Below, one piece after another: positions 1 through 12,934 of a stretch of DNA of 21,882 nt. Where the stretch lies: assembly GCA_034717975.1 (NCBI GenBank), contig JAYEMF010000023.1, positions 1-21,882 on the forward strand. Direction: 5' to 3'. The notes under the pieces were generated by a model. It was not told where the DNA came from. It saw only the letters and a program-made list of their open reading frames with translations, and did not search any database. Origin of the DNA: Campylobacterota bacterium (GTDB taxonomy: Bacteria; Campylobacterota; Campylobacteria; Campylobacterales; Sulfurimonadaceae). Position numbers and translations under genes: made by a program. Positions within the stretch are counted from its first letter, which is position 1, and each line of letters opens with the position of its first letter.

Positions 1-215
1 TTCTGTTCAGATGAGAGATCTTTTGCAAGTTTATTTAGCATCATACTCTTTCCTGTACCCGGCTTACCGTATACAAGGATCATTTTGAGCGGTTTCTTTA
101 CAGAATCTTTCAGTGTCTGATAGATTGTTGAAGTGCGGTCAAGCTGGATGTAGTCTTTCGCATCGACAACATCCAAAAAAACCTCTTTTTGTTTCTCGAA
201 GAGTGTGTTATTCAT
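1..215 (-). CDS. ExeA/MshM/CtsP-like P-loop ATPase, 5' part only (runs off the window edge; missing from the ORF track)
   Basis: Manual translation from ATG at 215: MNNTLFEKQKEVFLDVVDAKDYIQLDRTSTIYQTLKDSVKKPLKMILVYGKPGTGKSMMLNKLAKDLSSEQ... It has a Walker A motif (GKPGTGKS) and overlaps the secretin gene by 8 nt, the position of mshM/ctsP. Confidence 0.85.
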   Translation of the reverse strand, partial: MNNTLFEKQKEVFLDVVDAKDYIQLDRTSTIYQTLKDSVKKPLKMILVYGKPGTGKSMMLNKLAKDLSSEQ

Positions 216-1830
216 TGCCCTCATCTATCTCTTTAGGGCGTTCTTCATCAATCTTTTCCATTGTTTTACGAATATCACCCATACTGAATGCATGCTCTTT
301 TAGGTTTGTTTCATTGATACCGGTATAGCCAAGTTCAGTCAGTGACACACCACTGCCAGCTTTGTCAATAATATGCGGTTCGATGACCATGACAAGTTCT
401 TGGACCTGGGTACTGGTCTCTTCATATTTAAAAGCCCAACCAAGGATAGGAATATCACCTAAAAGTGGTACTTTATGTTCATCTTGCATTTTCTTAGTGT
501 TGATAAGACCACCAAGGATAACTCGTTCACCATCTTGTACAGTGACGACTGAAGCAAGTTGACGTCTCTCCAAGTCTGGCGGCATGGTACGATCGGTATT
601 GTCTCCTGCAATATCTTGTGCAGTTTGCGTAATTGATGGATTGATTTTGAGGGTTATTGTGCCATCATGAGAAATTTCTGGGGTGATGTCCAGCAGGACT
701 CCGGCAAAAACTGAACTGACAACAGTATTTTGCACGGTTGTTGTGACACCGCCACCAGTACCTTGTAAATTTGATGATTGTTCAACACTGTAGAAGTACT
801 CTGTACCGACTGTAATGAGAGCCGGTTGATTGTTAAGTGTCAGGACTTTTGGATTTGAAATAGCTTTGACATCACCTTGTGATTTAAGAAATTTTATTAC
901 TTCATTCAAACTTGCGGCACCCTGAGCTTGAAACATTTTGGCGGTGCCCGCTGTTCCAGGAATCAAAACGTCTTCAATTGCTCCCTCTGTAAATGTTTCA
1001 ACATTAGTTACACTCATTAAGTCAGCAGTAAGATTAAAGTTTTGAAGTGCATAAAGCTGTCTCCAGTCAACACCGGTGGATGACCCGTCACTTAGTGTGA
1101 CAGCAAGTAGATTTACATCGATTAGCACTTGGTACTGAACTTTTTTCTGAAGCTCTTTCAAGTACTCTTCCAAACGATTTATCTGTTTTACAGTGGCAGA
1201 TACCGTAACCATACCGGCATTTTTATTGATAATCGGTGCTTCTGCCTGATAGAGATCTTCAGGACGATTGAGAACACGTTGAAGTTCTAAATCAAGTTCT
1301 TCCCAGAATATAACTTCATCTGATGTTTCGATTTTCATACCGGTCTCTGTTTCTCCACTACTCTGCGCGGCGCTGGTACCCGCATCTGTCCCACTGCCTT
1401 CTGTACCCGATTTGGAACTCAGAAGGATATCGGTACTGCTCAATCCTTTTCGCTGTGACAATATATAGTCAATATTAAAAGTTTTAGTTTGCAGATAAGA
1501 GACTTTTAAAATATTGTTTTCAAGGGTATAGGAGAGGTCGTTTTCTGTCAGTATGATATCTAGTACTTCATCAATTGTCAGATTTTTTAACTTCGTTTTA
1601 TTGAGCGCTTTTTTTAAGGTTTTCTCTGCTTCAATGTCTGCAATAATGACACTGAATGAACACTCATCGCTCAGCTGATCGATAAATTCACCGACGTTTG
1701 TACCTTTTTCAGAAGAGATAGTGAATAGTTGATATGTACAATCAGCACTTAACGCTGATGTCATAAGCAACGAAGCCGCTGTCACCGAAACGATACTCTT
1801 TTTCAATGTAGTAAATGGAGATGCCTTCAT
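208..1830 (-). CDS. mshL: Outer-membrane secretin, MshL/CtsD (PilQ/GspD family)
   Basis: 540 aa with a signal peptide, an STN-like N-domain and a Ser/Gly/Thr-rich insert typical of MshL. Secretin C-domain motifs are present: SNPKVLTLNNQPALITVG, GVLLDITP, VTVQDGERVILGGL, KVPLLGDIPILGWAF, ELVMVIEP. Confidence 0.9.
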   Translation of the reverse strand: MKASPFTTLKKSIVSVTAASLLMTSALSADCTYQLFTISSEKGTNVGEFIDQLSDECSFSVIIADIEAEKTLKKALNKTKLKNLTIDEVLDIILTENDLSYTLENNILKVSYLQTKTFNIDYILSQRKGLSSTDILLSSKSGTEGSGTDAGTSAAQSSGETETGMKIETSDEVIFWEELDLELQRVLNRPEDLYQAEAPIINKNAGMVTVSATVKQINRLEEYLKELQKKVQYQVLIDVNLLAVTLSDGSSTGVDWRQLYALQNFNLTADLMSVTNVETFTEGAIEDVLIPGTAGTAKMFQAQGAASLNEVIKFLKSQGDVKAISNPKVLTLNNQPALITVGTEYFYSVEQSSNLQGTGGGVTTTVQNTVVSSVFAGVLLDITPEISHDGTITLKINPSITQTAQDIAGDNTDRTMPPDLERRQLASVVTVQDGERVILGGLINTKKMQDEHKVPLLGDIPILGWAFKYEETSTQVQELVMVIEPHIIDKAGSGVSLTELGYTGINETNLKEHAFSMGDIRKTMEKIDEERPKEIDEGNE

Positions 1831-1839
1831 AACTCTTTC

Positions 1840-2313
1840 CTATTTGATTTGAATTTTAATTTTTGGATTCGTAGCAGTGAGGAATAGTGTCCTCTTTGCT
1901 TTTCCACGTTTTAAGATAACTGAGTCTTCAGCTATTTTAGCTACGCTGTAACCTTTGACTTTGTCATCTTTTTTACACCATTTGCCTGCAATTAACGCAC
2001 TGTCATTCAATATGGCAGTTAACTTTAACGGCTTGACAATAACTTTTTTAGTAGCTGTTTTACTTGTGGCCGTAGCAGAACTTTTTGATGTTGTGGCTTT
2101 TTGTTTGTAGGCAACCTTAAAAGGGTTTTTTACTCTGTGCACTGCTTTTGCACTGATCCCTTTTCTCGGCGGTTTGATGGCTGCAATTTGAGCATCAACC
2201 CAGCCTGTATTTGCATTGGAAGCTATTGCAGCAACTGCTGGACTTTTTTCTGTCTCAGCAGTAGCGGCAAAGAGGGTGCCTGTAATGATCAGGGTTAGTA
2301 GTAATGTTTTCAT
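1840..2313 (-). CDS. MshK/PilP-like periplasmic pilus assembly protein
   Basis: Likely start MKTLLL at 2313 (TAATG overlap with the upstream stop), 157 aa. It has a signal peptide, an NPF motif, a T/S/K-rich linker and a C-terminal beta domain (LKLTAIL...ALIAGKW...GYSVAKIAEDSVIL). It lies between a PilO-like gene and the secretin. Confidence 0.6.
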   Translation of the reverse strand: MKTLLLTLIITGTLFAATAETEKSPAVAAIASNANTGWVDAQIAAIKPPRKGISAKAVHRVKNPFKVAYKQKATTSKSSATATSKTATKKVIVKPLKLTAILNDSALIAGKWCKKDDKVKGYSVAKIAEDSVILKRGKAKRTLFLTATNPKIKIQIK

Positions 2314-2945
2314 TAGTATGTAATCCCCCAAACTGATATTTGAAGATCAGCATTTAAGCGCTCTTCAGTTGTTATGGCAAATTGATGGATATCAACAACC
2401 AGAAAACTTTGTTCCAGGGAGTTGATATACTTCACTAGATTGTGAAAAGAGCCATAAGATTTGACATTTATATCCAGGACATGTCCAAATGCCTCTTTAT
2501 TGGTAGCAAAAGCATTGCTGTACTCTACAATTTTAATTTTGTATTTTTTGGCATTTTCAGAAACAGAGTCGATGTACTCACCCCATGCCTGCTCATCATA
2601 ATACAATTCAGAGATCTGCTCGATTTGATACTTGATGTATGCATTGCTGTCCTGGAATTCCAGGAATTTAGCTTCAATGGCTTTTGTCTGATTCTCAATC
2701 TGCACGATCATAGACTCCGGGTGGGTGCGTAGATAATTCTGATCTGCAAGAATCTTTTTCTCAAGAGATTGACTCTCTTTAAGTGCCTGATCGTAACCCA
2801 GTTTAGCGCTGTCCCATAAAAAATAATAGGAGAGAAATACTAAACCGCCTGCAATGAGAACAAAGATCATATAAATCTCTTTATCCTCTTTTTCAGCAAA
2901 GGCCTGATCTAATTGATAGAGATAATCTTCGATATTTATTTTCAT
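2313..2945 (-). CDS. PilO/MshJ-like inner-membrane alignment protein
   Basis: 210 aa with one N-terminal TM helix, a coiled coil and a C-terminal motif (INVKSYGSFHNLVKYINSLE) resembling the PilO/GspM G.F..L..F+..LE signature. Confidence 0.75.
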   Translation of the reverse strand: MKINIEDYLYQLDQAFAEKEDKEIYMIFVLIAGGLVFLSYYFLWDSAKLGYDQALKESQSLEKKILADQNYLRTHPESMIVQIENQTKAIEAKFLEFQDSNAYIKYQIEQISELYYDEQAWGEYIDSVSENAKKYKIKIVEYSNAFATNKEAFGHVLDINVKSYGSFHNLVKYINSLEQSFLVVDIHQFAITTEERLNADLQISVWGITY

Positions 2946-4474
2946 CGCAGCACCGCCTTCAGCTCAGCATAGTATCTGAACTTTTCTGGATCGTATGTGA
3001 TCTTTTCCATCAGGAATTGATAATTTTTTGTTTTTGCCTGTGTAAGATACTCAAGTAAAGCTGTAATATCTTTGTCTTTACGAGCACTTAATGAGAAGGT
3101 AAAGGTTTTACTCTTCTCATCTTCATTATATGCAGCTTTTGTCAAATTGACTTTGTACCGGTTGAAGTCTCTTGTAAAAGCGGTCATAATCTTGGCTTTC
3201 ATCGGATAATTTACTTTAACATCGTGAATTTTCTCCAATGTCGCTCTTTTGGCATCAAACTCGGCTTTTTCGTTGTCAAGCAGTTTTTGTGCTCGATCTT
3301 TGTTGGCAAGCTTTAGCTTGATGGTGGCTTCGCGTGTTACTTTAAGGTTATGCACTTCATTGTACTCTTCAGTAAGAAGCTGTTTATGAACCTCTTCCGC
3401 ATAAGTCATTGTCCAGAACGTTACCGGATAAGCCATAGCTACAACAAGGGAGGCAGCTGTTAACGCGATGAGTTGACCACTTTTACGCTGTAAGAAAGGA
3501 GGTGGTCGGTGATAGGTTGTAAAGTTACACTCATAACGCTCTTCAGGCTGCATTTGTGTGTAGAGATGCATAAGTGAATGAATCTGATCAACATACCATG
3601 TCTCACTCTCAAAACCGTAGTCAAAATCAAATGCCATTGATGCAAGACCGAGATAGGTTTGTGAATACTCATCTAAACCGGAGATAGCACCGATTTGCGA
3701 TCCGATGTAGACCTGGTCAATACGTTCAATATCGAAGATACGTTTTGCATAGGTCAGGACATCATTGATATGCAAGAAGATCTCACCAAATAGTTTGATA
3801 AGATGTTTTTGATACTCAGTATTTGTAACACTTAACCCCTCTTCGGCAAGAAGCTGTATGAAGACTTCGTAGTTGATCTGCTCACCGAGAAGTTCACAAA
3901 AACGTTCATGCATCTGTTTGAATGAAAATTTCAGTGATTTGGTGTAAATGAACTCCTGTTCATTGTAGAGTGTGAAGAAAGCATCATTTTCCTGAAAATA
4001 GAGGAAGCTGTGGACACCGTTGTCATCAATGATCTCTTTTTGATAAAGTGATTTTAACAAGAGTGGAACAGGAACAATCTGATCAATGTATTTAAGTGCT
4101 TCTACACTTTCTGAAAACTCTTCTTCAAAATCTGTTGGATCAACAACAAAAACATGATAAAAGTTATTGTTCTCATCGGTATGTGCAGCTGAAATATAAT
4201 GAATCTGGTATTCGATGGCCATATCGAGTGCCAACTCTTCATAGATCTTATCTTCAAGTGCATCGTAAATATCTTCTTCAGGGATATTTTTACTGATGTC
4301 GATCATTGCAGTAATGAAACTTTTAGTATTTAAAAACGATATTGCATACTGCTCTTTTGAAAACTCCGGCTTCTCTACTTGTGTCAGACGATTCGACACA
4401 CCCTTATAATAACTAGCTTTATACGGATTGATAGAGATGACACTGGAAAATGTCTGATTTACTGTTTTGTCCAT
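2942..4474 (-). CDS. PilM-PilN fusion (MshI/GspL-like architecture)
   Basis: 510 aa: an acidic cytoplasmic ~330-aa domain, a TM helix (LIALTAASLVVAMAYPVTFW), a coiled coil and a PilN-like C-terminus. It is the first gene of the pilus cluster. Confidence 0.65.
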   Translation of the reverse strand: MDKTVNQTFSSVISINPYKASYYKGVSNRLTQVEKPEFSKEQYAISFLNTKSFITAMIDISKNIPEEDIYDALEDKIYEELALDMAIEYQIHYISAAHTDENNNFYHVFVVDPTDFEEEFSESVEALKYIDQIVPVPLLLKSLYQKEIIDDNGVHSFLYFQENDAFFTLYNEQEFIYTKSLKFSFKQMHERFCELLGEQINYEVFIQLLAEEGLSVTNTEYQKHLIKLFGEIFLHINDVLTYAKRIFDIERIDQVYIGSQIGAISGLDEYSQTYLGLASMAFDFDYGFESETWYVDQIHSLMHLYTQMQPEERYECNFTTYHRPPPFLQRKSGQLIALTAASLVVAMAYPVTFWTMTYAEEVHKQLLTEEYNEVHNLKVTREATIKLKLANKDRAQKLLDNEKAEFDAKRATLEKIHDVKVNYPMKAKIMTAFTRDFNRYKVNLTKAAYNEDEKSKTFTFSLSARKDKDITALLEYLTQAKTKNYQFLMEKITYDPEKFRYYAELKAVLR

Positions 4475-5787
4475 TGCCCTTCGTCCTTTTTGAATTTTAC
4501 GGTTATCATTCCACAGAAGCTGTTGTCGTCATAGAGTTCTATGCGATAACGGCGCTTGGCATTGTCGAGTGAAAACTTGCTGTTTAAGTCACTTAAAGCA
4601 ACCAAACATCCATTTTCATTCTTTTTGCCAGAATCTGTATACCCAATGATGTTAACCCGCAATCGATCACTCGCGTTAACCTTAAAATCGGCAGTTACAA
4701 ATGTTTCTGAAGCTATTGTAACATCTTTTTGATCTCCGTCAACCAAAATCGGCAGTTTGGAGATGCAATCTTTTGTTTTAAAATGTTCAGGTTTTAGATT
4801 TGTAATAATCTTGTTGCCAATATAAAGAACATAGTCACCTTTGACCTGTTTTACACTGCCCAAGGGGTGTGTAAAGCTAAAGGTACTCTCAAATAATGGT
4901 AGCGGAATAAAACTTAAATTATTTCTTATATCATTCAGATTCAGGGATATTTTGTTATTTATTACAATCTTTCCGTAGTTTTCCAGAAGATTTTTGACAC
5001 TCTTTTTACTTAAGGTGAAATGGCGATGATAACTGATTCCCATTATCTTCATGAAGGACTCAATGGCATTAAGCTGATAATAGACCTTTTCGGCCAGTGT
5101 GGAGAGGTTTTTACTTGTCTCAATTGCAAAAGCGGGTTTGTTGTGGGTAACTGCAAAATAGGTTAATGAGAGCTGCATCGCTTCGTCATCGAATTTTGTT
5201 TGAGTGTTTTTTACATTGAAGGTATGGTGCTCTTCAAGAAGGGTGCTGTTTAACTGTTTACTGACTTTCTTGGCGATCTCTTCAAGATTGCCGAATGGCT
5301 GATTGACGGAGAGATTGCACTGGTCGATTACACAGGTCTGTCCCCATGCATTTGGATTGAAGATAGTACTGGTGTAGTTCTGGCGGTAGAATCCGTGTCC
5401 GTCATGCAGGTTCAGGACCAGAGAGACTTGATCGTCGGTAATGGTTTTTTTGATGCTGCTGACAGCCGGAGCGTCCTGGTCGGATGGTGCAATAGCGGAA
5501 AATTTGCGATTCATATCGCCATGTACACCACGACTGTTAGCCTGAATACTTGGACGGTTAAGATCGGGAACGATCCAAAGGTTTCCTTTTGTGATCTCAT
5601 AATACTGCATCAGCATTGCCGTTGCGAAATAGCCACCCGGTTCATTTCCGTGAATACCGCCGATCACAAGAAGTGTCGGGTCGGAGGTGTTGTTCTCCTT
5701 TTTATCCAGTAAAAATGATGATCCGTGGAGATGGGCCAGTAACAAACTGCTTAAAACAAAAAGGCGTAAACTACTTTTCAGCAACAA
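4459..5787 (-). CDS. pgp1: M99/M14-like peptidoglycan DL-carboxypeptidase, Csd4/Pgp1 family
   Basis: Motifs GGIHGNEPGG, GDMNRKF, LNLHDGHGFYR, NPNAWGQTCVIDQ and AFAIETSK, plus a signal peptide. The TTG start is uncertain. Confidence 0.88.
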   Translation of the reverse strand: MLLKSSLRLFVLSSLLLAHLHGSSFLLDKKENNTSDPTLLVIGGIHGNEPGGYFATAMLMQYYEITKGNLWIVPDLNRPSIQANSRGVHGDMNRKFSAIAPSDQDAPAVSSIKKTITDDQVSLVLNLHDGHGFYRQNYTSTIFNPNAWGQTCVIDQCNLSVNQPFGNLEEIAKKVSKQLNSTLLEEHHTFNVKNTQTKFDDEAMQLSLTYFAVTHNKPAFAIETSKNLSTLAEKVYYQLNAIESFMKIMGISYHRHFTLSKKSVKNLLENYGKIVINNKISLNLNDIRNNLSFIPLPLFESTFSFTHPLGSVKQVKGDYVLYIGNKIITNLKPEHFKTKDCISKLPILVDGDQKDVTIASETFVTADFKVNASDRLRVNIIGYTDSGKKNENGCLVALSDLNSKFSLDNAKRRYRIELYDDNSFCGMITVKFKKDEGQWTKQ

Positions 5788-6730
5788 TTTTCATCTTTCC
5801 ATTATTTAAACGTACGATAAGACTTTTGTTCCCTTGAAAATTAACACGATTGGAAAGATAGGTCTCCTTAAACCAGATCAGAAAGAGATTTCTTTCGCTG
5901 GATGGATAAGGGATGATGTTAAGTGATCTGAAATCTATCTGTTTTTTATCGTTGTAAGCAAAAACCTGGCGCTTGTACGCTTTAAAACGTTTTTTATTCA
6001 TCCCGTCATAACGCTGAAAGTCATCGGCATAGAAATCTAGGTAGGCTGTTAGGTCATTATATAGCCATGTATATCGCCAGGAAAAGAGTTCAGCAAGTAA
6101 AGAAGCCATGGTGTCTAATGTGACAGGCGCTTCCTCTTTTGGTTCAATGATGACAATACTGTTTTCAAGGGATAGTTTTTCACTCATACAGGTGATGTCA
6201 CTGTTTTCAATGGCAATACACCCTCTCGTATAAGGTTCTCGCTCTGCATTGTCAGGCAGACCGTGGATCCAGATACCTGAACCGTTCTTGCCTTGTAAAC
6301 GATCATAAAAGTTTGGATAAGAGGTGACAAAGGCCAGCGGTCCGTAGAAAGGATCAAGCTGGTCGAGTTTTTCTGTCAGATGATAGACACCGACGGGTGT
6401 TTTCAGGTCGCCTTCACGCCGCTTGTCACCGTCAAGCTTGCCGGTATAGGCATTGAAGGTGTTTTGTAAAACAAACTCGCCTTCTGCATCACGCTTGAAA
6501 AATGAGAGTTTGGAACGCTCTTTATTGCACTGTAGAAGGGAGTTGACACTCTCAAAGTAGCCAAAGCGAAGGTCTTTCCCCGAGAGTTCATTTTCCCAGT
6601 AGGAAGTCTTAGCGAGTTCACGATCAAGTTTTTTGGTTATCTCTTCAATACCATGCATACGATAAAGTGTTGCAAGCTCTTGTGAGAAAAGAGAGGTTGA
6701 GAGCATGGCCAATAGCAGTAATCTTATCAT
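5771..6730 (-). CDS. pgp2: YkuD-family L,D-carboxypeptidase, Csd6/Pgp2 family, with C-terminal NTF2-like domain
   Basis: Motifs GDKRREGDLKTPVGVY, YGPLAFVTSYPN and catalytic GIWIHG...TRGCIA. The C-terminal W...W...DL.AYLDFY segment is NTF2-like. Confidence 0.88.
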   Translation of the reverse strand: MIRLLLLAMLSTSLFSQELATLYRMHGIEEITKKLDRELAKTSYWENELSGKDLRFGYFESVNSLLQCNKERSKLSFFKRDAEGEFVLQNTFNAYTGKLDGDKRREGDLKTPVGVYHLTEKLDQLDPFYGPLAFVTSYPNFYDRLQGKNGSGIWIHGLPDNAEREPYTRGCIAIENSDITCMSEKLSLENSIVIIEPKEEAPVTLDTMASLLAELFSWRYTWLYNDLTAYLDFYADDFQRYDGMNKKRFKAYKRQVFAYNDKKQIDFRSLNIIPYPSSERNLFLIWFKETYLSNRVNFQGNKSLIVRLNNGKMKIVAEK

Positions 6731-7602
6731 TCGTACCCCATATCGCGGAGGAGCTCTTTGTCACTAGTCCACCCTTTTTTAACCGAGACAAAAAGATCCA
6801 AAAAGACTTTTTTATCGATGAGGCGTTCGATTTTCGCTCTGGCATCTCTTCCGATGCGTTTAATCGCACTGCCGCCTTTACCGATAATGATCCCTTTCTG
6901 GCTCTCTTTTTCAATGATAATGGTCGCACGCACGCGCTCAAGGCCATCCTCCTCATCAATTTTATCGATAAGTACATCGGACTCATAGGGGATCTCGTCG
7001 CTGATATTCTCAAAGATCGCTTCACGGATAAACTCTTTGTAGATATCGCGCAGCATCTCCGTTGTCATATCATCGGGATCATATAGGTAAGGTGATTCCT
7101 CCAGATGTTTGACAATCGTGTCGAGCAGATCCTCTTTTCCCAGCTTTTTGGTGACTGAAAGGGGAATCAGTGCTTCAAACCGGTCAGAGAACTGGTTGTA
7201 TTGGCCGATACGTTTGAGCAGCTTCTCCTGAGAGACCTGATCGATTTTACTGAGTACAATAATATGTTTGCGACTGTTTTGATAGTGTTTTAAAAACTTC
7301 TCATAGTGTTCAATGGAGTCAGTGGCTGGTGCCAGGTAGACAACCAGGTCACAATCACCAATTGCTTTAAGGGCTTCTTCCATCATATACTGGTTAAGAA
7401 GTTTCTCTTTTTCATGCAGACCGGGAGTGTCTACAAAGATAATCTGGTCATGATGATGCATAACAATAGCATTCGAGCGTTTTCTTGTAGCATTGGCCTT
7501 CTGACTGACCAGCGCAATCTTTTCACCAAGTATCCAGTTCATCAGGGTGCTTTTCCCCGCATTTGGACGTCCGACCAGTGCTACGAAGCCTGCTTTTGTC
7601 AT
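6727..7602 (-). CDS. era: GTPase Era
   Basis: G1 GRPNAGKS, G3 DTPG, G4 SKID, KH domain IIGKGG. Confidence 0.97.
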   Translation of the reverse strand: MTKAGFVALVGRPNAGKSTLMNWILGEKIALVSQKANATRKRSNAIVMHHHDQIIFVDTPGLHEKEKLLNQYMMEEALKAIGDCDLVVYLAPATDSIEHYEKFLKHYQNSRKHIIVLSKIDQVSQEKLLKRIGQYNQFSDRFEALIPLSVTKKLGKEDLLDTIVKHLEESPYLYDPDDMTTEMLRDIYKEFIREAIFENISDEIPYESDVLIDKIDEEDGLERVRATIIIEKESQKGIIIGKGGSAIKRIGRDARAKIERLIDKKVFLDLFVSVKKGWTSDKELLRDMGYE

Positions 7603-7611
7603 CTTAAACCT

Positions 7612-8940
7612 TTAAAGTATGTAACGCGAGAGATCTTCATCTTCGATCACCTGATCCAGTTTCGCATGGACCAGTTCAGCGGTGATCGTAACTGTCTCAC
7701 CCTGTTTCTCATCGGCATCGAAACTGATCTCTTCCAGGATATTTTCCAAAACTGTGTGTAGGCGGCGTGCACCGATATCTTCTGTCTTTTCATTGGCACG
7801 ATGGGAGAGTTTGGCGATGGCCCGGATGGCGTCATCAGAAAACTTCAATTCAACTTCTTCAACCAAGAGAAGTGCTTCGTACTGGCGTAAAAGTGAGTTT
7901 TTTGTCTGTGTCAGGATCTGATAGAGTGCTTCTTCATCGAGGGATGACAGTTCGACTCTGAGCGGAAATCGTCCCTGCAGTTCAGGAATAAGATCGCTTG
8001 GTTTACTGACGTGGAAAGCGCCTGCAGCGATGAAAAGGATGTGATCGGTTTTGATCACACCGTATTTGGTAGTCACTGAGCTCCCCTCCACGATAGGCAA
8101 AAGGTCGCGCTGGACTCCCTCTTTGCTAGGGTCATTACGCCCCTCGCTTTTGGAACTGACGGCAATCTTGTCGATCTCATCGAGGAAAACGATACCGCCC
8201 TGTTCAGCACGTCTGATCGCTTTGGTCCGGATCGCTTCCATATCGAGCAGCTTGTCGCTTGCTTCGGCTTTGAGCATCTCTTTGGCCTCTTTGACACTCG
8301 CCTCTTTTTTGGCCTCTTCTTTATTGAAGCTGCTGAACATTTTGGAAAAAGATTCCTGAACTTTTGCCATCTCCGGAGGCATATTGGCGTCGTTAAACTC
8401 TACCTGAAGCTTTGGAAGATCGATCTCAATCGTTTTCTCATCCATATCTCCATTGATGACACGTTCATACATACGTGCTTTGGAGCTGGCATACTCCTCT
8501 TTTTTAGTGTCGCTGGCGAGTGAAGGCAGCGGTGGAAGCAGTTTTTCGACAATGGTATTGATAACATAACGTTCGATCGCCTCCTTATTCTTCTCCTGCT
8601 CTTCCGTTTTGACAATGGTGATAGAGGTCATAACAAGATCACGGATCATTGATTCGACATCCCGACCGACGAAACCGACTTCGGTGTACTTACTGGCTTC
8701 TACTTTGATGAATGGAAGACCCATCATTTTGGCCAGGCGGCGGGAGATCTCTGTTTTTCCGACACCGGTCGATCCGATCATCAGGATGTTTTTCGGCATG
8801 ATCTCATCCTGGAGTTCCTGACTCAGCTGCATACGGCGATGTCTGGTACGAAGTGCAAGTGCGATGGTGCGTTTGGCATCATTCTGGCCAATGATGTAGT
8901 TATCCAGGTAAGCTACGATCTCTTTGGGGGTAAGGTTCAC
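7612..8940 (-). CDS. hslU: ATP-dependent protease ATPase subunit HslU
   Basis: Motifs [44 protein letters not shown] and C-terminal DLSRYIL. GTG start overlaps the hslV stop. Confidence 0.98.
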
Positions 8941-9482
8941 GCCTTCTCCTCATCTAAAGTAAGTGTTTTGATCTCATGGTTGGTATAGATACAGAGGTCA
9001 GCTGCAATATGAAGACTCTCCTTCACCAGCTCCTCTTCATCCATCTTGGCATGTTTTTTAAGTGCACGTGCGGCTGATATGGCGAAGTTACCACCGCTTC
9101 CGATCGATGCGATACAGCCATCTTCAGGTTCGACAACATCTCCGGTACCGGTAAGGATGAAGATATGTTCTCGGTTCAGGACGATCATCATCGCTTCCAG
9201 GCGGCGAAGGATCTTATCTTTTCGCCATGCTTTGGAAAAGTCGATCACCGCTTTGACAAGATCACCTTTGCGGTTGGAGAGCTGCTCTTCAAACATATCG
9301 AAAAGATTGAAAGCATCGGCTGTTGAACCGGCAAAACCGGCAAGGATATTACCGTGGTAGAGAGTACGGATCTTTGTGGCGTTGTTTTTTAAGACACTGT
9401 TGCCAAAGGTTACCTGACCATCACCGCCGATGACGGCTTTTTTCTCGCCTTTGTAGGCAAGAATGGTAGTGGCATCAAACAT
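8937..9482 (-). CDS. hslV: ATP-dependent protease peptidase subunit HslV
   Basis: Motifs [31 protein letters not shown] and CIYTN. Confidence 0.98.
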
Positions 9483-9929
9483 TTACTCACCTACGACATT
9501 AACATGGAGTGTGGCATGAATGCCGTGTCCAAGTTTGAGATCAAGGTTATGCTCACCGGTCATCTTGATGGCCTCTTTGTGGTTAATATGTTTTTTGTCA
9601 ATCTCAATTTTATGCTGATCGTTCAGGGCGTGGGCAATCTCATCTTTGGTAACGGAACCAAACAGATGGCCTGTATCTCCCAGTTTTTTGCTGATATTGA
9701 TCTGGAGTTTGTCAAGTCTGGCTTTGAGGGCATTGAGATCTTCGATCTCCTGAGCTGCATTGGCCGCTTTTTTGCGCTCCTGTGAAGCATGCTGTTTGAC
9801 AACGTCATTGGTGGCGTGTTTGGCCATTCCTCTTCCGATCAGGAAGTTCTTGCCATATCCGTCTTTTACCTCTTTGATCTCACCGGCTTTGCCAAGCCCT
9901 TTAACATCTTTTGTAAGTAGTACTTTCAT
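9483..9929 (-). CDS. rplI: 50S ribosomal protein L9
   Basis: True start is [30 protein letters not shown] at 9929 (148 aa); GHLFGSVT motif present. Confidence 0.97.
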
Positions 9930-9963
9930 CTTTAGCCTTTGAATATCTTGTTTTGTTAAACGC

Positions 9964-10686
9964 CTAGCGTTCGATCTCGCCGCCATACGATACGATACCG
10001 TATGTCAGGTTCCCGACTTTTGGATAACCCATGTCGTTCAGGATGCGTTGAACATGCGCACTTCGGCTTCCGACATGACAGTAGACGATGATGTTTTCAT
10101 CTTTTCGTAGACCGGCCTCCTGGAAAGTGTCAAAGAAGCTGCTGGTTGGAATAAGCTTGTCAGCCCCTTTGATGCGACCCATCTGCCACTCCATATGTTC
10201 GCGAACATCAACCAGTTTGAAGTTTATCATACCCAGCTCTTTGGCTTCGACCAATGCATGGACTTCATCACCATCGAGCTGCTTTTTCTCAAGAAGGATC
10301 AGACACTCCTCGGTGGTCAGTCCACGTGAGTGTTGGTGAACTACCTCTTCGATCTCTTCCTCTTTGGCGTGACGCTCAGCAAACTCTGGAGTACAGTAGA
10401 TCTGGCAGTGACATACGCCATCTTCGGGGATCTCTTTTTCGATGGCCGGAGGACATGGACAGATACGGTCTTCCTCTTTGTTCCCGGTAATGAAGAAACA
10501 TGGGCAGTAGCGTTTACCGTGCATCATCTTGTTACGGGTAAGCCCAAGCTGGATACCTTCATTGATCTCTGCATCGGGATTGTAGGCCCAGCCGAACTGT
10601 TCAACAACTTTATCGGTAAATTTTACCGTCTTCTCAAGTTGTGCCTGAAACTCATCAGAGTTAATATCGATTTTGGTGATACTCAT
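9964..10686 (-). CDS. Ferredoxin-thioredoxin reductase catalytic (beta) domain fused to a rhodanese domain
   Basis: The N-half has GL..NK..HG.RYCPC-x12-CPC-x13-CHC, the FTR 4Fe-4S/active-disulfide signature. The C-half has LVDVRE..EW..G.I.GA and the rhodanese active loop YCHVGSRS. Confidence 0.85.
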
Positions 10687-10694
10687 AATAGTCC

Positions 10695-11912
10695 TTACTT
10701 TTTCTTGCGTGCTTTGCCTTCGATAATAAAACGAAGGGCATTGAGTTTGATAAAGCCTGCGGCATCTTTCTGGTCGTAGACTTCATCTTCTTCAAAAGTC
10801 GAGTACTCTTCACTAAACAGTGACATGTCTGAAGAACGGCCAACAACCATGATATTTCCTTTGTAAAGTTTCAGACGGACCATTCCGTTTACGAACTCCT
10901 GAGTCTTGTCGATTGCCGCCTGAAGCATTTCGCGCTCCGGTGCAAACCAGAAGCCGTTGTAGATCAGTTTTGCATAACGAGGCATCATCTCATCTTTAAG
11001 GTGAGCAGCTTCGCGGTCCAGTGTAATAGACTCTATGGCACGGTGAGCTTTTAACATGATAGTTCCACCCGGCGTTTCATAACAACCACGTGCTTTCATA
11101 CCGACAAAACGGTTTTCAACTATGTCAACGCGACCAATACCATGCTTTCCGCCGATTTCGTTTAGCGTTTTAAGCATTGTAGCCGGACTTAACGCTTCGC
11201 CATTTAGTGTAACAGGGTCGCCATTTTTATAACCGATTTCAATATACTCTGCTTCGTCCGGTGCATTTTCAGGTGAAGAAGACCATAACCACATGCTCTC
11301 TTCAGGCTCCGCATTTGGATCTTCCAGGATTCCGCCTTCATAAGAGATATGAAGCAGGTTGGCATCCATAGAATAAGGTGATTTCTTACCTTTCTTTTCA
11401 ATGCTTATACCATGTTCTGCTGCATAAGATAGAAGTTTTTCACGTGAGTTTAAGTCCCACTCTCTCCATGGAGCGATGATAGTCAGCGTTGAGTCCTGAC
11501 CTAAATAACCCATCTCAAAACGTACCTGGTCATTACCCTTGCCGGTTGCACCATGACTGACACCATCAGCACCGGTGAGTTTGGCTATTTCAGCTTGACG
11601 TTTAGCGATTAGCGGACGAGCTATAGAAGTTCCCAAAAGATATTCACCCTCATAGATGGCGTTTGCTCGAAACATTGGGTATACGAAATCTTTTACAAAC
11701 TCTTCTCTTAAGTCATCAATAAAAATGTTTTCAGGTTTGATTCCAAATTCTAGTGCTTTAACACGGGCCGGTTCTAGCTCTTCACCTTGACCAAGATCGG
11801 CAGTAAATGTGACTACTTCGCAGTTGTATTCGTCTTGGAGCCATTTTAGAATAACACTGGTGTCAAGACCGCCAGAGTAGGCGAGTACGACTTTTTTTAC
11901 ATCTCTTCTCAT
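10695..11912 (-). CDS. argG: Argininosuccinate synthase
   Basis: Motifs [38 protein letters not shown] and YETPGG. Confidence 0.98.
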
Positions 11913-11952
11913 ACAAAACCTTTTTAGGGAGTGCCCTATTTATAGTTCCGCG

Positions 11953-11958
11953 ATTTTA
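11953..11958 (-). promoter_or_regulatory. Putative sigma70 -10 box for the argG operon
   Basis: TAAAAT on the minus strand about 40 nt upstream of the argG ATG, followed by a small hairpin (TAGGG-N4-CCCTA, 11925-11938) before the RBS. Confidence 0.5.
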
Positions 11959-12001
11959 TCGAAAAAGAGTTTATAGTTTCATATCGGGGATTGAACGAGT
12001 G

Positions 12002-12055
12002 TTGATAAAGAGACCTCTTTTATCTTGGAAATTGGATAAGGAGAGGCATTATCAA
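12002..12055. other. Imperfect inverted repeat / stem-loop between fliS and argG (possible terminator or sRNA element)
   Basis: TTGATAA..CCTCTTTTATC-[TTGGAAATTG]-GATAAGGAGAGG..TTATCAA. Confidence 0.5.
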
Positions 12056-12094
12056 GCGAAGAAATATTATTTATTCATATAGGAGAGTTAAAGA

Positions 12095-12472
12095 TTATTG
12101 AGCGGGATCGGTTGTCTCTCTCCAGCCTTCGAGAAGTCCTTTGACGACATTGTTGATTTCATCGAGTTTGGACAGATCATTGTGCAGACCTGCTTCGACA
12201 AGCAGTTGAAGCTGATAGGTGTATAGGCCGTTTAGGTAGTGTGCAATATCACCCTGAGTAAAGTCAAGAGTGTTGATCAGTTCGGTAAAGATAGCAGATG
12301 AACGGTTGATCCAGTAGGTACGCTTTTCAATATTCTCATCATTGATGGCTTTTTTAGCCTGGGTATTGAAACGTAAAATCCCTTCATAGAGCATTTCGAT
12401 CAGTTTGTAAGGTGATTCTACCCCTGCATTGTTTTGTGCATACGTATTATAAGCTAAATTATTGTTATACAT
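12095..12472 (-). CDS. fliS: Flagellin export chaperone FliS
   Basis: Motifs AYNTYAQN, SPYKLIEMLYEGILRF, IFTELINTLD, YLNGLYTY and LLEGWRE. The likely start is ATG at 12472, after an AAGGA RBS. Confidence 0.93.
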   Translation of the reverse strand: MYNNNLAYNTYAQNNAGVESPYKLIEMLYEGILRFNTQAKKAINDENIEKRTYWINRSSAIFTELINTLDFTQGDIAHYLNGLYTYQLQLLVEAGLHNDLSKLDEINNVVKGLLEGWRETTDPAQ

Positions 12473-12550
12473 ATCTTCATCCTTTTTATCTTTGTCGGGC
12501 ACTTTCGACCCCTCTTCTGAAATTTATTACTTAATTAAAGTAAGTCTGAC

Positions 12551-12934
12551 TTACCCTTTTTGATCGAATAAAAATCCGCTCATATCTTGCATCTTTTGTG
12601 CCAGTGATACAGCTTGTTCAGCTGGAAAACGGCGGATAATACGGTTTGACGCTGTCTCAATTACTGAAACATAAAAATCCTCTGAGGTATTGTCAAAACC
12701 AAAGCGCAGTGATGTGTTGAATGGGTTAAGGGCAGTGTTCAGATCTTTAACGAGATCTTCCACCTCTTTTTCCGAATCAATTTTAGTGACTTCCTGTTCA
12801 TTTGATTTTTGCTCCTGAACCTGCTGCTGTTGCTGAATCTGCTCAACTTGTGATGTCTTTGGCTGGACGTTCTGCACAGGTGTAGGGTTCATTTGTGTCT
12901 GTTGTTGTTTCGCAACTTGATTCATGATTTCCAT
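12551..12934 (-). CDS. flaG: Flagellar protein FlaG
   Basis: Q-rich N-terminal linker, then LNTAL...TSLRFGFD...FYVSVIE...IIRRFPAE...GFLFDQKG. AAGGAG RBS. Confidence 0.92.
   Translation of the reverse strand: MEIMNQVAKQQQTQMNPTPVQNVQPKTSQVEQIQQQQQVQEQKSNEQEVTKIDSEKEVEDLVKDLNTALNPFNTSLRFGFDNTSEDFYVSVIETASNRIIRRFPAEQAVSLAQKMQDMSGFLFDQKG

Follow-up and report, generated by a model that had tools for sequence, protein, structure and literature searches.

What does a rhodanese do when it shares a polypeptide with the catalytic domain of a ferredoxin:thioredoxin reductase (FTR)? The question is raised by a 21,882-nucleotide stretch of DNA from a member of the Sulfurimonadaceae (Campylobacterota bacterium, assembly GCA_034717975.1, contig JAYEMF010000023.1), hereafter called the window, in which an ATG-started open reading frame (ORF) on the minus strand (9964..10686) encodes a protein of 240 amino acids (aa). 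A first-pass annotation, made from the letters alone, read this ORF as an FTR catalytic domain joined to a rhodanese and proposed that it reduces persulfides or polysulfides with ferredoxin. Indeed, a Pfam search of the product returned two domains only, FeThRed_B and Rhodanese, both far over their cut-offs. By its sequence, the fusion belongs to a strongly conserved, database-annotated family whose function is a prediction; the function that we favour, with slightly less than even confidence, is that of a cytoplasmic ferredoxin-dependent reductase of the sulfane sulfur carried on the protein's own Cys203.

The N-terminal half aligns to FeThRed_B (PF02943) over residues 17–116 with 108.2 bits against a cut-off of 22 (E 2.7e-31), covering profile positions 2–105 of 106. 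Its cysteines are arranged as C61-P-C63, x12, C76-P-C78, x13, C92-H93-C94, with further cysteines at positions 98 and 128. Mapping what is known of FTR onto this motif, we take C61, C76, C78 and C92 to be the cluster ligands, C63 and C94 to form the disulfide and H93 to be the active-site histidine. A word-indexed protein search gave 1306 proteins at E ≤ 0.001 among 1501 candidates. The CPC-x12-CPC-x13-CHC pattern read at first pass is present in the protein, and in the best 120 of the 1306 homologues the second spacing (x13), the histidine and the seventh cysteine are identical throughout (120/120); the first spacing, however, is not a family constant, being x12 in 71, x17 in 25, x11 in 22 and x18 in two of these 120, and ranging from x11 to x19 across the family. 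In a conservation alignment of 48 members spanning 42–90% identity, C61, C63, C76, C78, C92 and C94 are invariant (48/48) and H93 is kept in 47 rows, the exception (locus L029) having Arg. C98 is likewise kept in 47 of the 48 rows, the odd one being P0124, a singleton from a contig of 1951 bases, while C128 is not conserved (21 of 36 rows). The gene at L029 (L029:4030-4776, genome G065) is the sole family member seen with CRC and is otherwise intact.

By sequence, the closer solved relatives of this domain belong to the ferredoxin:disulfide reductase (FDR) class rather than to the FTR catalytic chains. Among PDB sequences the FDR of Methanosarcina acetivorans (4tpu) matched at E 1.1e-11 and the glutaredoxin/FDR fusion 7pwe at E 1.3e-8, ahead of the FTR catalytic chains (4e-4 to 3e-3), and a search with the family profile returned the same ranking. 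The alignments show CHC in the fusion, with His as in FTRs, against CYC (Tyr) in both solved FDRs. The best NCBIfam model, NF041072 (FtrB family double-selenoprotein), scored 75.5 bits, below its cut-off of 160. Selenocysteine variants were considered and rejected, as the in-frame TGA and other stops in some paralogue matches are ordinary gene ends or decayed spacers; in the fusion the redox-active positions are Cys codons.

The C-terminal half matches Rhodanese (PF00581) at residues 148–234 with 56.7 bits against a cut-off of 22.2 (E 3.4e-15), preceded from about residue 125 by a conserved helical lead-in. The active loop CHVGSRS, described as intact in the first-pass annotation, is identical in 119 of the best 120 homologues. 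As to whether the rhodanese cysteine is conserved, a check the annotation had proposed, C203 is kept in all 48 aligned members, as is R208, and G206 and S209 are kept in 47 (the odd row again being P0124). Since all seven catalytic cysteines are kept in 48 of 48 rows and H93 in 47, the alignment indicates strong purifying selection on both active sites. The loop, C-x4-R-S, has six residues with the catalytic Cys at its head. Six-residue loops mark sulfurtransferases rather than phosphatases, and by its sequence the loop is of the sulfurtransferase type. In NCBIfam the domain matched MoeZ/MoeB adenylyltransferase-sulfurtransferases at their rhodanese ends (E 8.4e-13 and 5e-11, below the family cut-offs), and the remaining matches were to the rhodanese ends of various enzymes, none over its cut-off. 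A Foldseek search with this half of the model found single-domain rhodaneses at a root-mean-square deviation of 1.8–2.3 over 105–109 columns, its matches including 3tp9, 2kl3, 6mxv, 5ve3–5, 3icr and 3nt6/4ocg as well as Uba4 (6yub). By sequence and by fold, the matches to this domain thus include fusions to sulfur-handling redox enzymes, namely NADH persulfide reductase (3nt6, 4ocg, 6pfz), CoADR-RHD (3icr) and the persulfide dioxygenase-rhodanese 5ve3, which supports the reading of the protein as a sulfane-sulfur reductase.

An AlphaFold2 model built on the 48-sequence alignment had a mean pLDDT of 93.7, with both domains confident, and a pTM of 0.62. The N-terminal domain is helical (residues 11–31, 39–56, 79–89 and 100–118, pLDDT mostly above 90) and the alpha/beta rhodanese domain begins at about residue 125. 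The acidic linker seen at first pass is present at residues 107–116 but is modelled inside helix 100–118, the last helix of the FTR-like domain; a low-confidence hinge spans residues 111–124 approximately, and the lowest pLDDT blocks are 111–120 (70) and 121–130 (86). Foldseek searches of the PDB matched each half separately, the FTR-like half to 7pwe, 4tpu, 7c2b and 1dj7, and no chain spanned both domains. Docking of residues 1–118 with a 4Fe-4S cluster against residues 119–240 gave a score of 0.00 (mark 0.32) in a run without controls and is counted neither way.

How widely is this architecture distributed? The best 120 homologues, at 69–100% identity and 238–248 aa, carry both Pfam domains in every case and come from organisms recorded as Sulfurimonas, Sulfuricurvum, Helicobacteraceae or Campylobacterales. 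Those that have a name are recorded as 'ferredoxin-thioredoxin reductase catalytic domain-containing protein', 'ferredoxin-thioredoxin reductase catalytic subunit/rhodanese-related sulfurtransferase' or 'sulfurtransferase'; the architecture is already named in NCBI and JGI annotation. An exhaustive search of representatives at 50% identity gave 2457 matches, of which only about five are full-length fusions (P0121, P0122, P0124, P0126 and P0127; 42–58% identity), two of these being named as Sulfurospirillum and uncultured Sulfurovum. P0127, a 308-aa homologue from Sulfurovum, is publicly called 'Rubredoxin' and has FeThRed_B and rhodanese domains without a rubredoxin; the name looks as if it had been carried over, as it equals the PDB molecule name of 4tpu. 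In the ESM Atlas eight clusters contain both domains, all of them from Campylobacterota where the phylum is known, and a scan of genome contigs confirmed 547 of 599 candidate stretches, the best 80 being all Sulfurimonadaceae-type records with the closest at 88% identity.

The taxonomic spread, which the first-pass annotation had suggested checking, was examined in 401 Campylobacterota genomes including the source assembly (G000), a full-length fusion being defined as an uninterrupted match over at least residues 5–237. Both domains occur together in this form in 101 of the 401 genomes, that is, in 101 of the 125 outside two families (f2 and f3) and in 35 of 35 genomes of the source family, G000 among them. 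In f2 and f3 the fusion was found in none of 276 genomes, which gave only weak rhodanese matches and one stand-alone FTR-like gene. The fusion is thus near-universal in non-host-associated Campylobacterales. Decayed copies were also seen: at L140 (G043:C1:186800-189000) the N-terminal part of a fusion contains stops and has lost the first CPC, downstream of an intact stand-alone FTR-like gene, and in two further genomes (G364:C1:495303-496070 and G297:C1:1722866-1723618) second copies with four to five internal stops accompany an intact one.

The two modules also occur as separate genes. In L121, L123, L124 and L136 a paralogous FTR-like gene is immediately followed by a separate gene for a rhodanese of the fusion's subfamily, and a similar pairing in genome G291 (locus L122) rests on adjacent genome-search matches. 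The split genes lie in different frames in L123 and L136 and in the same frame in L124, with five stops in the spacer. The split-form rhodaneses are 42–48% identical to the C-terminal half of the fusion, including the helical lead-in, and keep the active Cys, for example in CRTGSRS or CRSGNRT. To find modules both fused and as adjacent gene pairs is a classical sign that they act together, and it is what one would expect if the FTR-like module worked with the rhodanese as its partner. Fused and stand-alone forms intermingle in a tree of the FTR-like domain built on 64 rows and 93 columns, and its well-supported branches force at least two changes between them; the tree is too poorly resolved to tell a single from a multiple fusion origin, and its grouping partly tracks a shared insertion.

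Neighbouring genes were compared in 31 loci, 11 from the source family and 20 from outside it, with a Pfam scan of 65 flanking ORFs in the 20. The order argG-fusion-rplI is found in 11 of 11 source-family loci and in one other family (L032), and L028 retains the downstream half of that order, fusion-rplI-hslV-hslU; the 18 remaining distant loci have differing neighbours without a common theme. None of the 31 loci has a thioredoxin gene beside the fusion, and the 20 distant loci contain no recurrent functional partner except extra FTR-like or rhodanese genes and, in two loci, DsbD. A second, stand-alone FTR-like gene stands directly upstream of the fusion in L026, L027 and L034, and a separate rhodanese of the same subfamily stands beside it in L023 and L039. 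The two DsbD genes, both from one family, are full-length (DsbD_N, DsbD_TM and a thioredoxin-like domain) and on the fusion's strand (L022:4947-6938 and L023:5297-7066). In L022 the DsbD gene immediately precedes the fusion; in L023 a small gene for a DksA-type zinc-finger protein lies between the two.

Many relatives carry stand-alone FTR-like paralogues, some 112–131 aa long and with a longer first spacing, CPC-x17/18-CPC (L125:3974-4369, L127:3979-4323, also L129, L133 and L134). They adjoin an ATP-dependent PEP carboxykinase in two loci of one family, and in L123, L124 and L134 lie between gatC and a gene for an M20 (DapE-like) peptidase. In one family (L026 and L136) the FTR-like and rhodanese genes are followed by a gene for a protein of 582–589 aa from the uncharacterised family DUF7897 (L026:5982-7751, L136:4721-6469; E ~1e-199) and preceded by a divergently oriented amt-glnB (P-II) pair, a neighbourhood that is conserved.

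These observations have led us to propose a working scheme for the fusion, in which the bound cluster, the donor of electrons, the substrate and the thiol chemistry between the domains are inferred. The scheme is built on the stepwise mechanism of FTR. With thiosulfate, polysulfide or a persulfide (of low molecular weight or on a protein) as donor, Cys203 would accept a sulfane sulfur and become Cys203-S-SH. Two successive one-electron transfers from reduced ferredoxin (Fd), relayed by a [4Fe-4S] cluster with C61, C76, C78 and C92 as ligands, would then open the C63–C94 disulfide beside the cluster, with H93 as acid/base as in FTR. The exposed Cys63 thiol would attack the persulfide on the flexibly tethered rhodanese of the same chain or of a partner chain, and Cys94 would resolve the intermediate, releasing H2S and regenerating Cys203-SH and the C63–C94 disulfide. 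The net reaction would be R-S-SH + 2 Fd(red) + 2 H+ -> R-SH + H2S + 2 Fd(ox). Such chemistry is plausible because a flavoprotein analogue is known in NADH persulfide reductase, a CoADR with a C-terminal rhodanese.

The fusion belongs with the FTR-like iron-sulfur disulfide reductases that bear a fused partner domain, the rhodanese being a new variation on the partner. The known substrates of such reductases are proteins with the thioredoxin fold. The FTR catalytic subunit of cyanobacteria and chloroplasts (1dj7, 2pu9, 7c2b) shares with it the FeThRed_B family and the CPC...CPC...CHC motif including His, and is recognisable to the fusion family by profile (E 2e-6 to 3e-5) and by fold. The fusion differs in its x12/x13 spacing, against the x16/x8 of the canonical FTR catalytic subunit (CPC-x16-CPC-x8-CHC), in its additional conserved Cys98 and C-terminal rhodanese, and in a genome without the variable subunit; its similarity to FTR is also weaker than that to the FDR class. 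The FDR of M. acetivorans, the closest solved relative of the N-terminal domain (aligned over residues 16–112), is like the fusion a single-subunit FTR-like enzyme with a C-terminal second domain, and has x12 as its second spacing where the fusion has x13; unlike the fusion it has CYC and carries a rubredoxin electron-input domain rather than a rhodanese. Its substrates are reportedly Trx5 and methanoredoxin. The first-pass annotation had cited this rubredoxin enzyme as the fusion precedent, and closer ones are now apparent in 7pwe and in the CoADR-rhodanese persulfide reductases (3nt6, 4ocg, 6pfz, 3icr). In 7pwe, from Desulfotalea psychrophila, an FTR-like module is tethered to a thiol-redox partner, which makes it the nearest precedent for a tethered substrate domain, with an N-terminal glutaredoxin and CYC against the C-terminal rhodanese and CHC found here; our literature search returned no paper on it.

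The CoADR-type enzymes resemble the fusion in joining a disulfide-reductase module to a single C-terminal rhodanese with a conserved Cys. According to PMC7969121, the sulfane sulfur is taken up first by a surface Cys of the rhodanese in NADH persulfide reductase (Npsr), and H2S and a thiol are formed. The reductase module of Npsr is a FAD/NAD(P)H pyridine-nucleotide disulfide oxidoreductase with bound CoA, unrelated to the iron-sulfur FTR fold, and its electron donor is NADH where ferredoxin is proposed for the fusion. The fusion contains no FAD/NAD(P)H oxidoreductase domain, and its PDB matches to CoADR-type enzymes cover only their rhodanese ends. In PRF of Burkholderia phytofirmans (5ve3–5ve5) a rhodanese 34–35% identical over 79 columns is likewise fused to a sulfane-sulfur-processing enzyme, in that case an oxidative dioxygenase without an iron-sulfur disulfide reductase module. 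By analogy, the fusion could well be, though we would put this a shade below an even chance, the iron-sulfur counterpart of NADH persulfide reductase and a sibling of the glutaredoxin-FDR and rubredoxin-FDR fusions.

The content of the source genome, a 2.52-Mb assembly that is 99.9% complete, bears on how the fusion may be used. Its single FeThRed_B gene is the fusion, and it gave no match to FeThRed_A (PF02941), the FTR variable subunit, which was matched in the control genome, Synechococcus. Within the window neither thioredoxin nor FeThRed_A domains occur in the 21 ORFs of at least 100 aa that were scanned, in agreement with the first-pass annotation. A Trx2-like protein is encoded in the genome, as is an ordinary trxA-trxB pair on another contig, with trxB (G000:C144:17709-18626; 341.6 bits, just below the TIGR01292 cut-off of 343.45) about 500 nucleotides after trxA; thioredoxin can therefore be reduced independently of the fusion.

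Several points speak against a sulfane-sulfur reductase. No result puts Cys63 near Cys203, and the model with its pTM of 0.62 does not confidently predict the relative position of the domains. No sulfur-metabolism gene is a conserved neighbour, the surroundings being argG, rplI and hslVU in the source family and heterogeneous elsewhere. About eight other rhodanese-domain proteins (11 domain matches) are encoded in the genome, so that rhodanese function is not unique to the fusion, and in L029 an Arg takes the place of His93. Lastly, any ferredoxin-to-thioredoxin route in this genome must also run through the fusion, its only FeThRed_B protein. For this reason the main rival stays viable, namely that the protein is a true ferredoxin:thioredoxin (or protein-disulfide) reductase working in trans on TrxA, on the Trx2-like protein or on the cytoplasmic face of DsbD, with the rhodanese as an accessory that would take the place of the missing variable subunit, serve for docking or regulate the reductase by sensing sulfur or redox state. 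The full FTR catalytic set, including the plant-type His that is Tyr in the solved FDRs, the presence of thioredoxins in the genome and the rhodanese-free FTR-like paralogues of relatives, which imply that the module can work alone, all suit such an enzyme, and the DsbD genes beside the fusion in two of the 20 distant loci (L022 and L023) may be a sign that DsbD is supplied by the reductase. Were the rhodanese there only for structure or docking, however, its catalytic Cys and loop would not need to be conserved in 48 of 48 members, the split-form rhodaneses keep the Cys too, thioredoxin genes are adjacent in none of the 31 loci and the NADPH-dependent trxA-trxB pair is available; we consider reduction in trans unlikely, at perhaps half the weight of an even chance.

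Less probable still is a biosynthetic sulfur relay, in which the rhodanese persulfide would be passed on with two electrons from the FTR-like module, rather than released as H2S for detoxification, to a thiocarboxylate carrier, to tRNA thiolation, to iron-sulfur or molybdenum cofactor assembly or to cysteine synthesis from thiosulfate. The below-cut-off matches to MoeZ/MoeB rhodanese ends, the structural match to Uba4 and the constitutive housekeeping operon (argG, rplI, hslVU, era) are in keeping with it, and the gene is single-copy and almost universal in the clade, as one for a biosynthetic function would be; against this, sulfur-carrier, ThiF/MoeB, tRNA-thiolation and iron-sulfur assembly genes are adjacent in none of the 31 loci, and the families without the fusion (0/276) would still need the universal biosynthetic steps, for which the fusion is presumably not indispensable there. 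A dissimilatory reductase conserving energy from sulfur, polysulfide or thiosulfate is very improbable. A part in sulfur respiration has been suggested for related rhodanese fusions (Npsr, CoADR; PMC7969121), and some carriers are named Sulfurospirillum; yet the protein is soluble, with neither a signal peptide nor a membrane partner in its sequence or among its neighbours, the gene sits in a housekeeping operon and occurs in every sampled member of the source family, whose close relatives bear the labels Sulfurimonas and Sulfuricurvum, and low-potential ferredoxin spent on cytoplasmic sulfur reduction should by itself conserve no energy. The flavour of sulfur respiration in the first-pass annotation is accordingly not favoured, given the cytoplasmic, housekeeping-operon setting. 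The sulfane-sulfur reductase that we prefer would probably serve to keep sulfane sulfur in balance or to supply sulfide rather than to respire, because the protein is cytoplasmic, its operon a housekeeping one, its hosts sulfur oxidisers and its occurrence near-universal in free-living Campylobacterales.

A search of the literature found no paper on an FTR/rhodanese fusion or its function, the surveys of FTR evolution likeliest to mention it having fallen outside that search. The statement at first pass that no characterised protein has this architecture holds as far as function is concerned; the architecture itself, already named in databases and near-universal in the group, is less novel than that statement implied. 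The survey of FTR catalytic-subunit variants by Balsera et al. (2013) may list forms with extra domains, in which case the fusion architecture, though not its function, may already be in print. With slightly more reserve than for the function itself, we suggest that the family could be the first iron-sulfur, flavin-free and NAD(P)H-independent persulfide reductase, applying the FTR mechanism to the sulfane sulfur of a built-in rhodanese Cys and linking the ferredoxin pool to cytoplasmic sulfane sulfur and sulfide in nearly all free-living Campylobacterales. Were this so, cluster-plus-disulfide chemistry would be extended to sulfane sulfur on a rhodanese, a new substrate class, and a ferredoxin-linked route would be added to the network of reactive sulfur species, so far described with NAD(P)H flavoenzymes. 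The gene is single-copy and strongly conserved, and is carried by most of the Campylobacterales that oxidise sulfur and hydrogen in vents, sediments, groundwater and brines; what it does therefore matters for the way in which these abundant organisms handle their intracellular sulfur and ferredoxin pool.

The coordinates of the gene, its domains and its immediate neighbours are collected in the table. The fusion follows argG after 8 nucleotides and is itself followed on the same strand by rplI, hslV, hslU and era. The longest ORF for rplI (9483-9986) extends 23 nucleotides into the 3' end of the fusion. Its Pfam domain, Ribosomal_L9_N, begins at residue 20, and the proteins of relatives begin with MKV, so that rplI probably starts at 9929, which would leave a gap of 34 nucleotides. 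A scan of 6600-12600 for promoters and terminators found such sites no more numerous than in shuffled sequence. The stretch is present in four DNA runs of one study and no RNA run is listed, which has no bearing on expression.

Table. Coordinates of the fusion gene, its parts and the adjoining genes, numbered from the first letter of the window
Feature	Position	Strand	Basis and remarks
Whole fusion gene	9964..10686	-	ORF translation; both Pfam domains; sole FeThRed_B match in genome
FTR-like (FeThRed_B) domain, residues 17-116	10339..10638	-	Pfam; same span from genome search; predicted helices
Cysteine set C61-P-C63 / C76-P-C78 / C92-H93-C94 and C98	10393..10506	-	Translation; taken to provide the [4Fe-4S] ligands and the redox-active disulfide
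Inter-domain acidic helix and hinge, residues 100-124	10315..10389	-	AlphaFold2; poorly conserved stretch
Rhodanese domain, residues 148-234	9985..10245	-	Pfam; genome search match 9985-10248; Foldseek
Rhodanese active-site loop C203-H-V-G-S-R-S	10060..10080	-	Read from sequence
Shine-Dalgarno-like AAGGA	10692..10696	-	5 nucleotides before the fusion ATG; overlaps argG stop codon (10695-10697)
argG (argininosuccinate synthase)	10695..11912	-	Directly upstream; Pfam Arginosuc_syn_C and Arginosuc_synth
rplI (ribosomal protein L9)	9483..9929	-	Directly downstream; probable start at the MKV Met at 9929, not 9986

Elsewhere in the window, genes related to cell shape were found at 4459-6730, encoding a Peptidase_M99 carboxypeptidase ('controlling helical cell shape') and a YkuD L,D-transpeptidase that ends in a Cds6 C-terminal domain; they are adjoined by a secretin gene cluster (208-4474).

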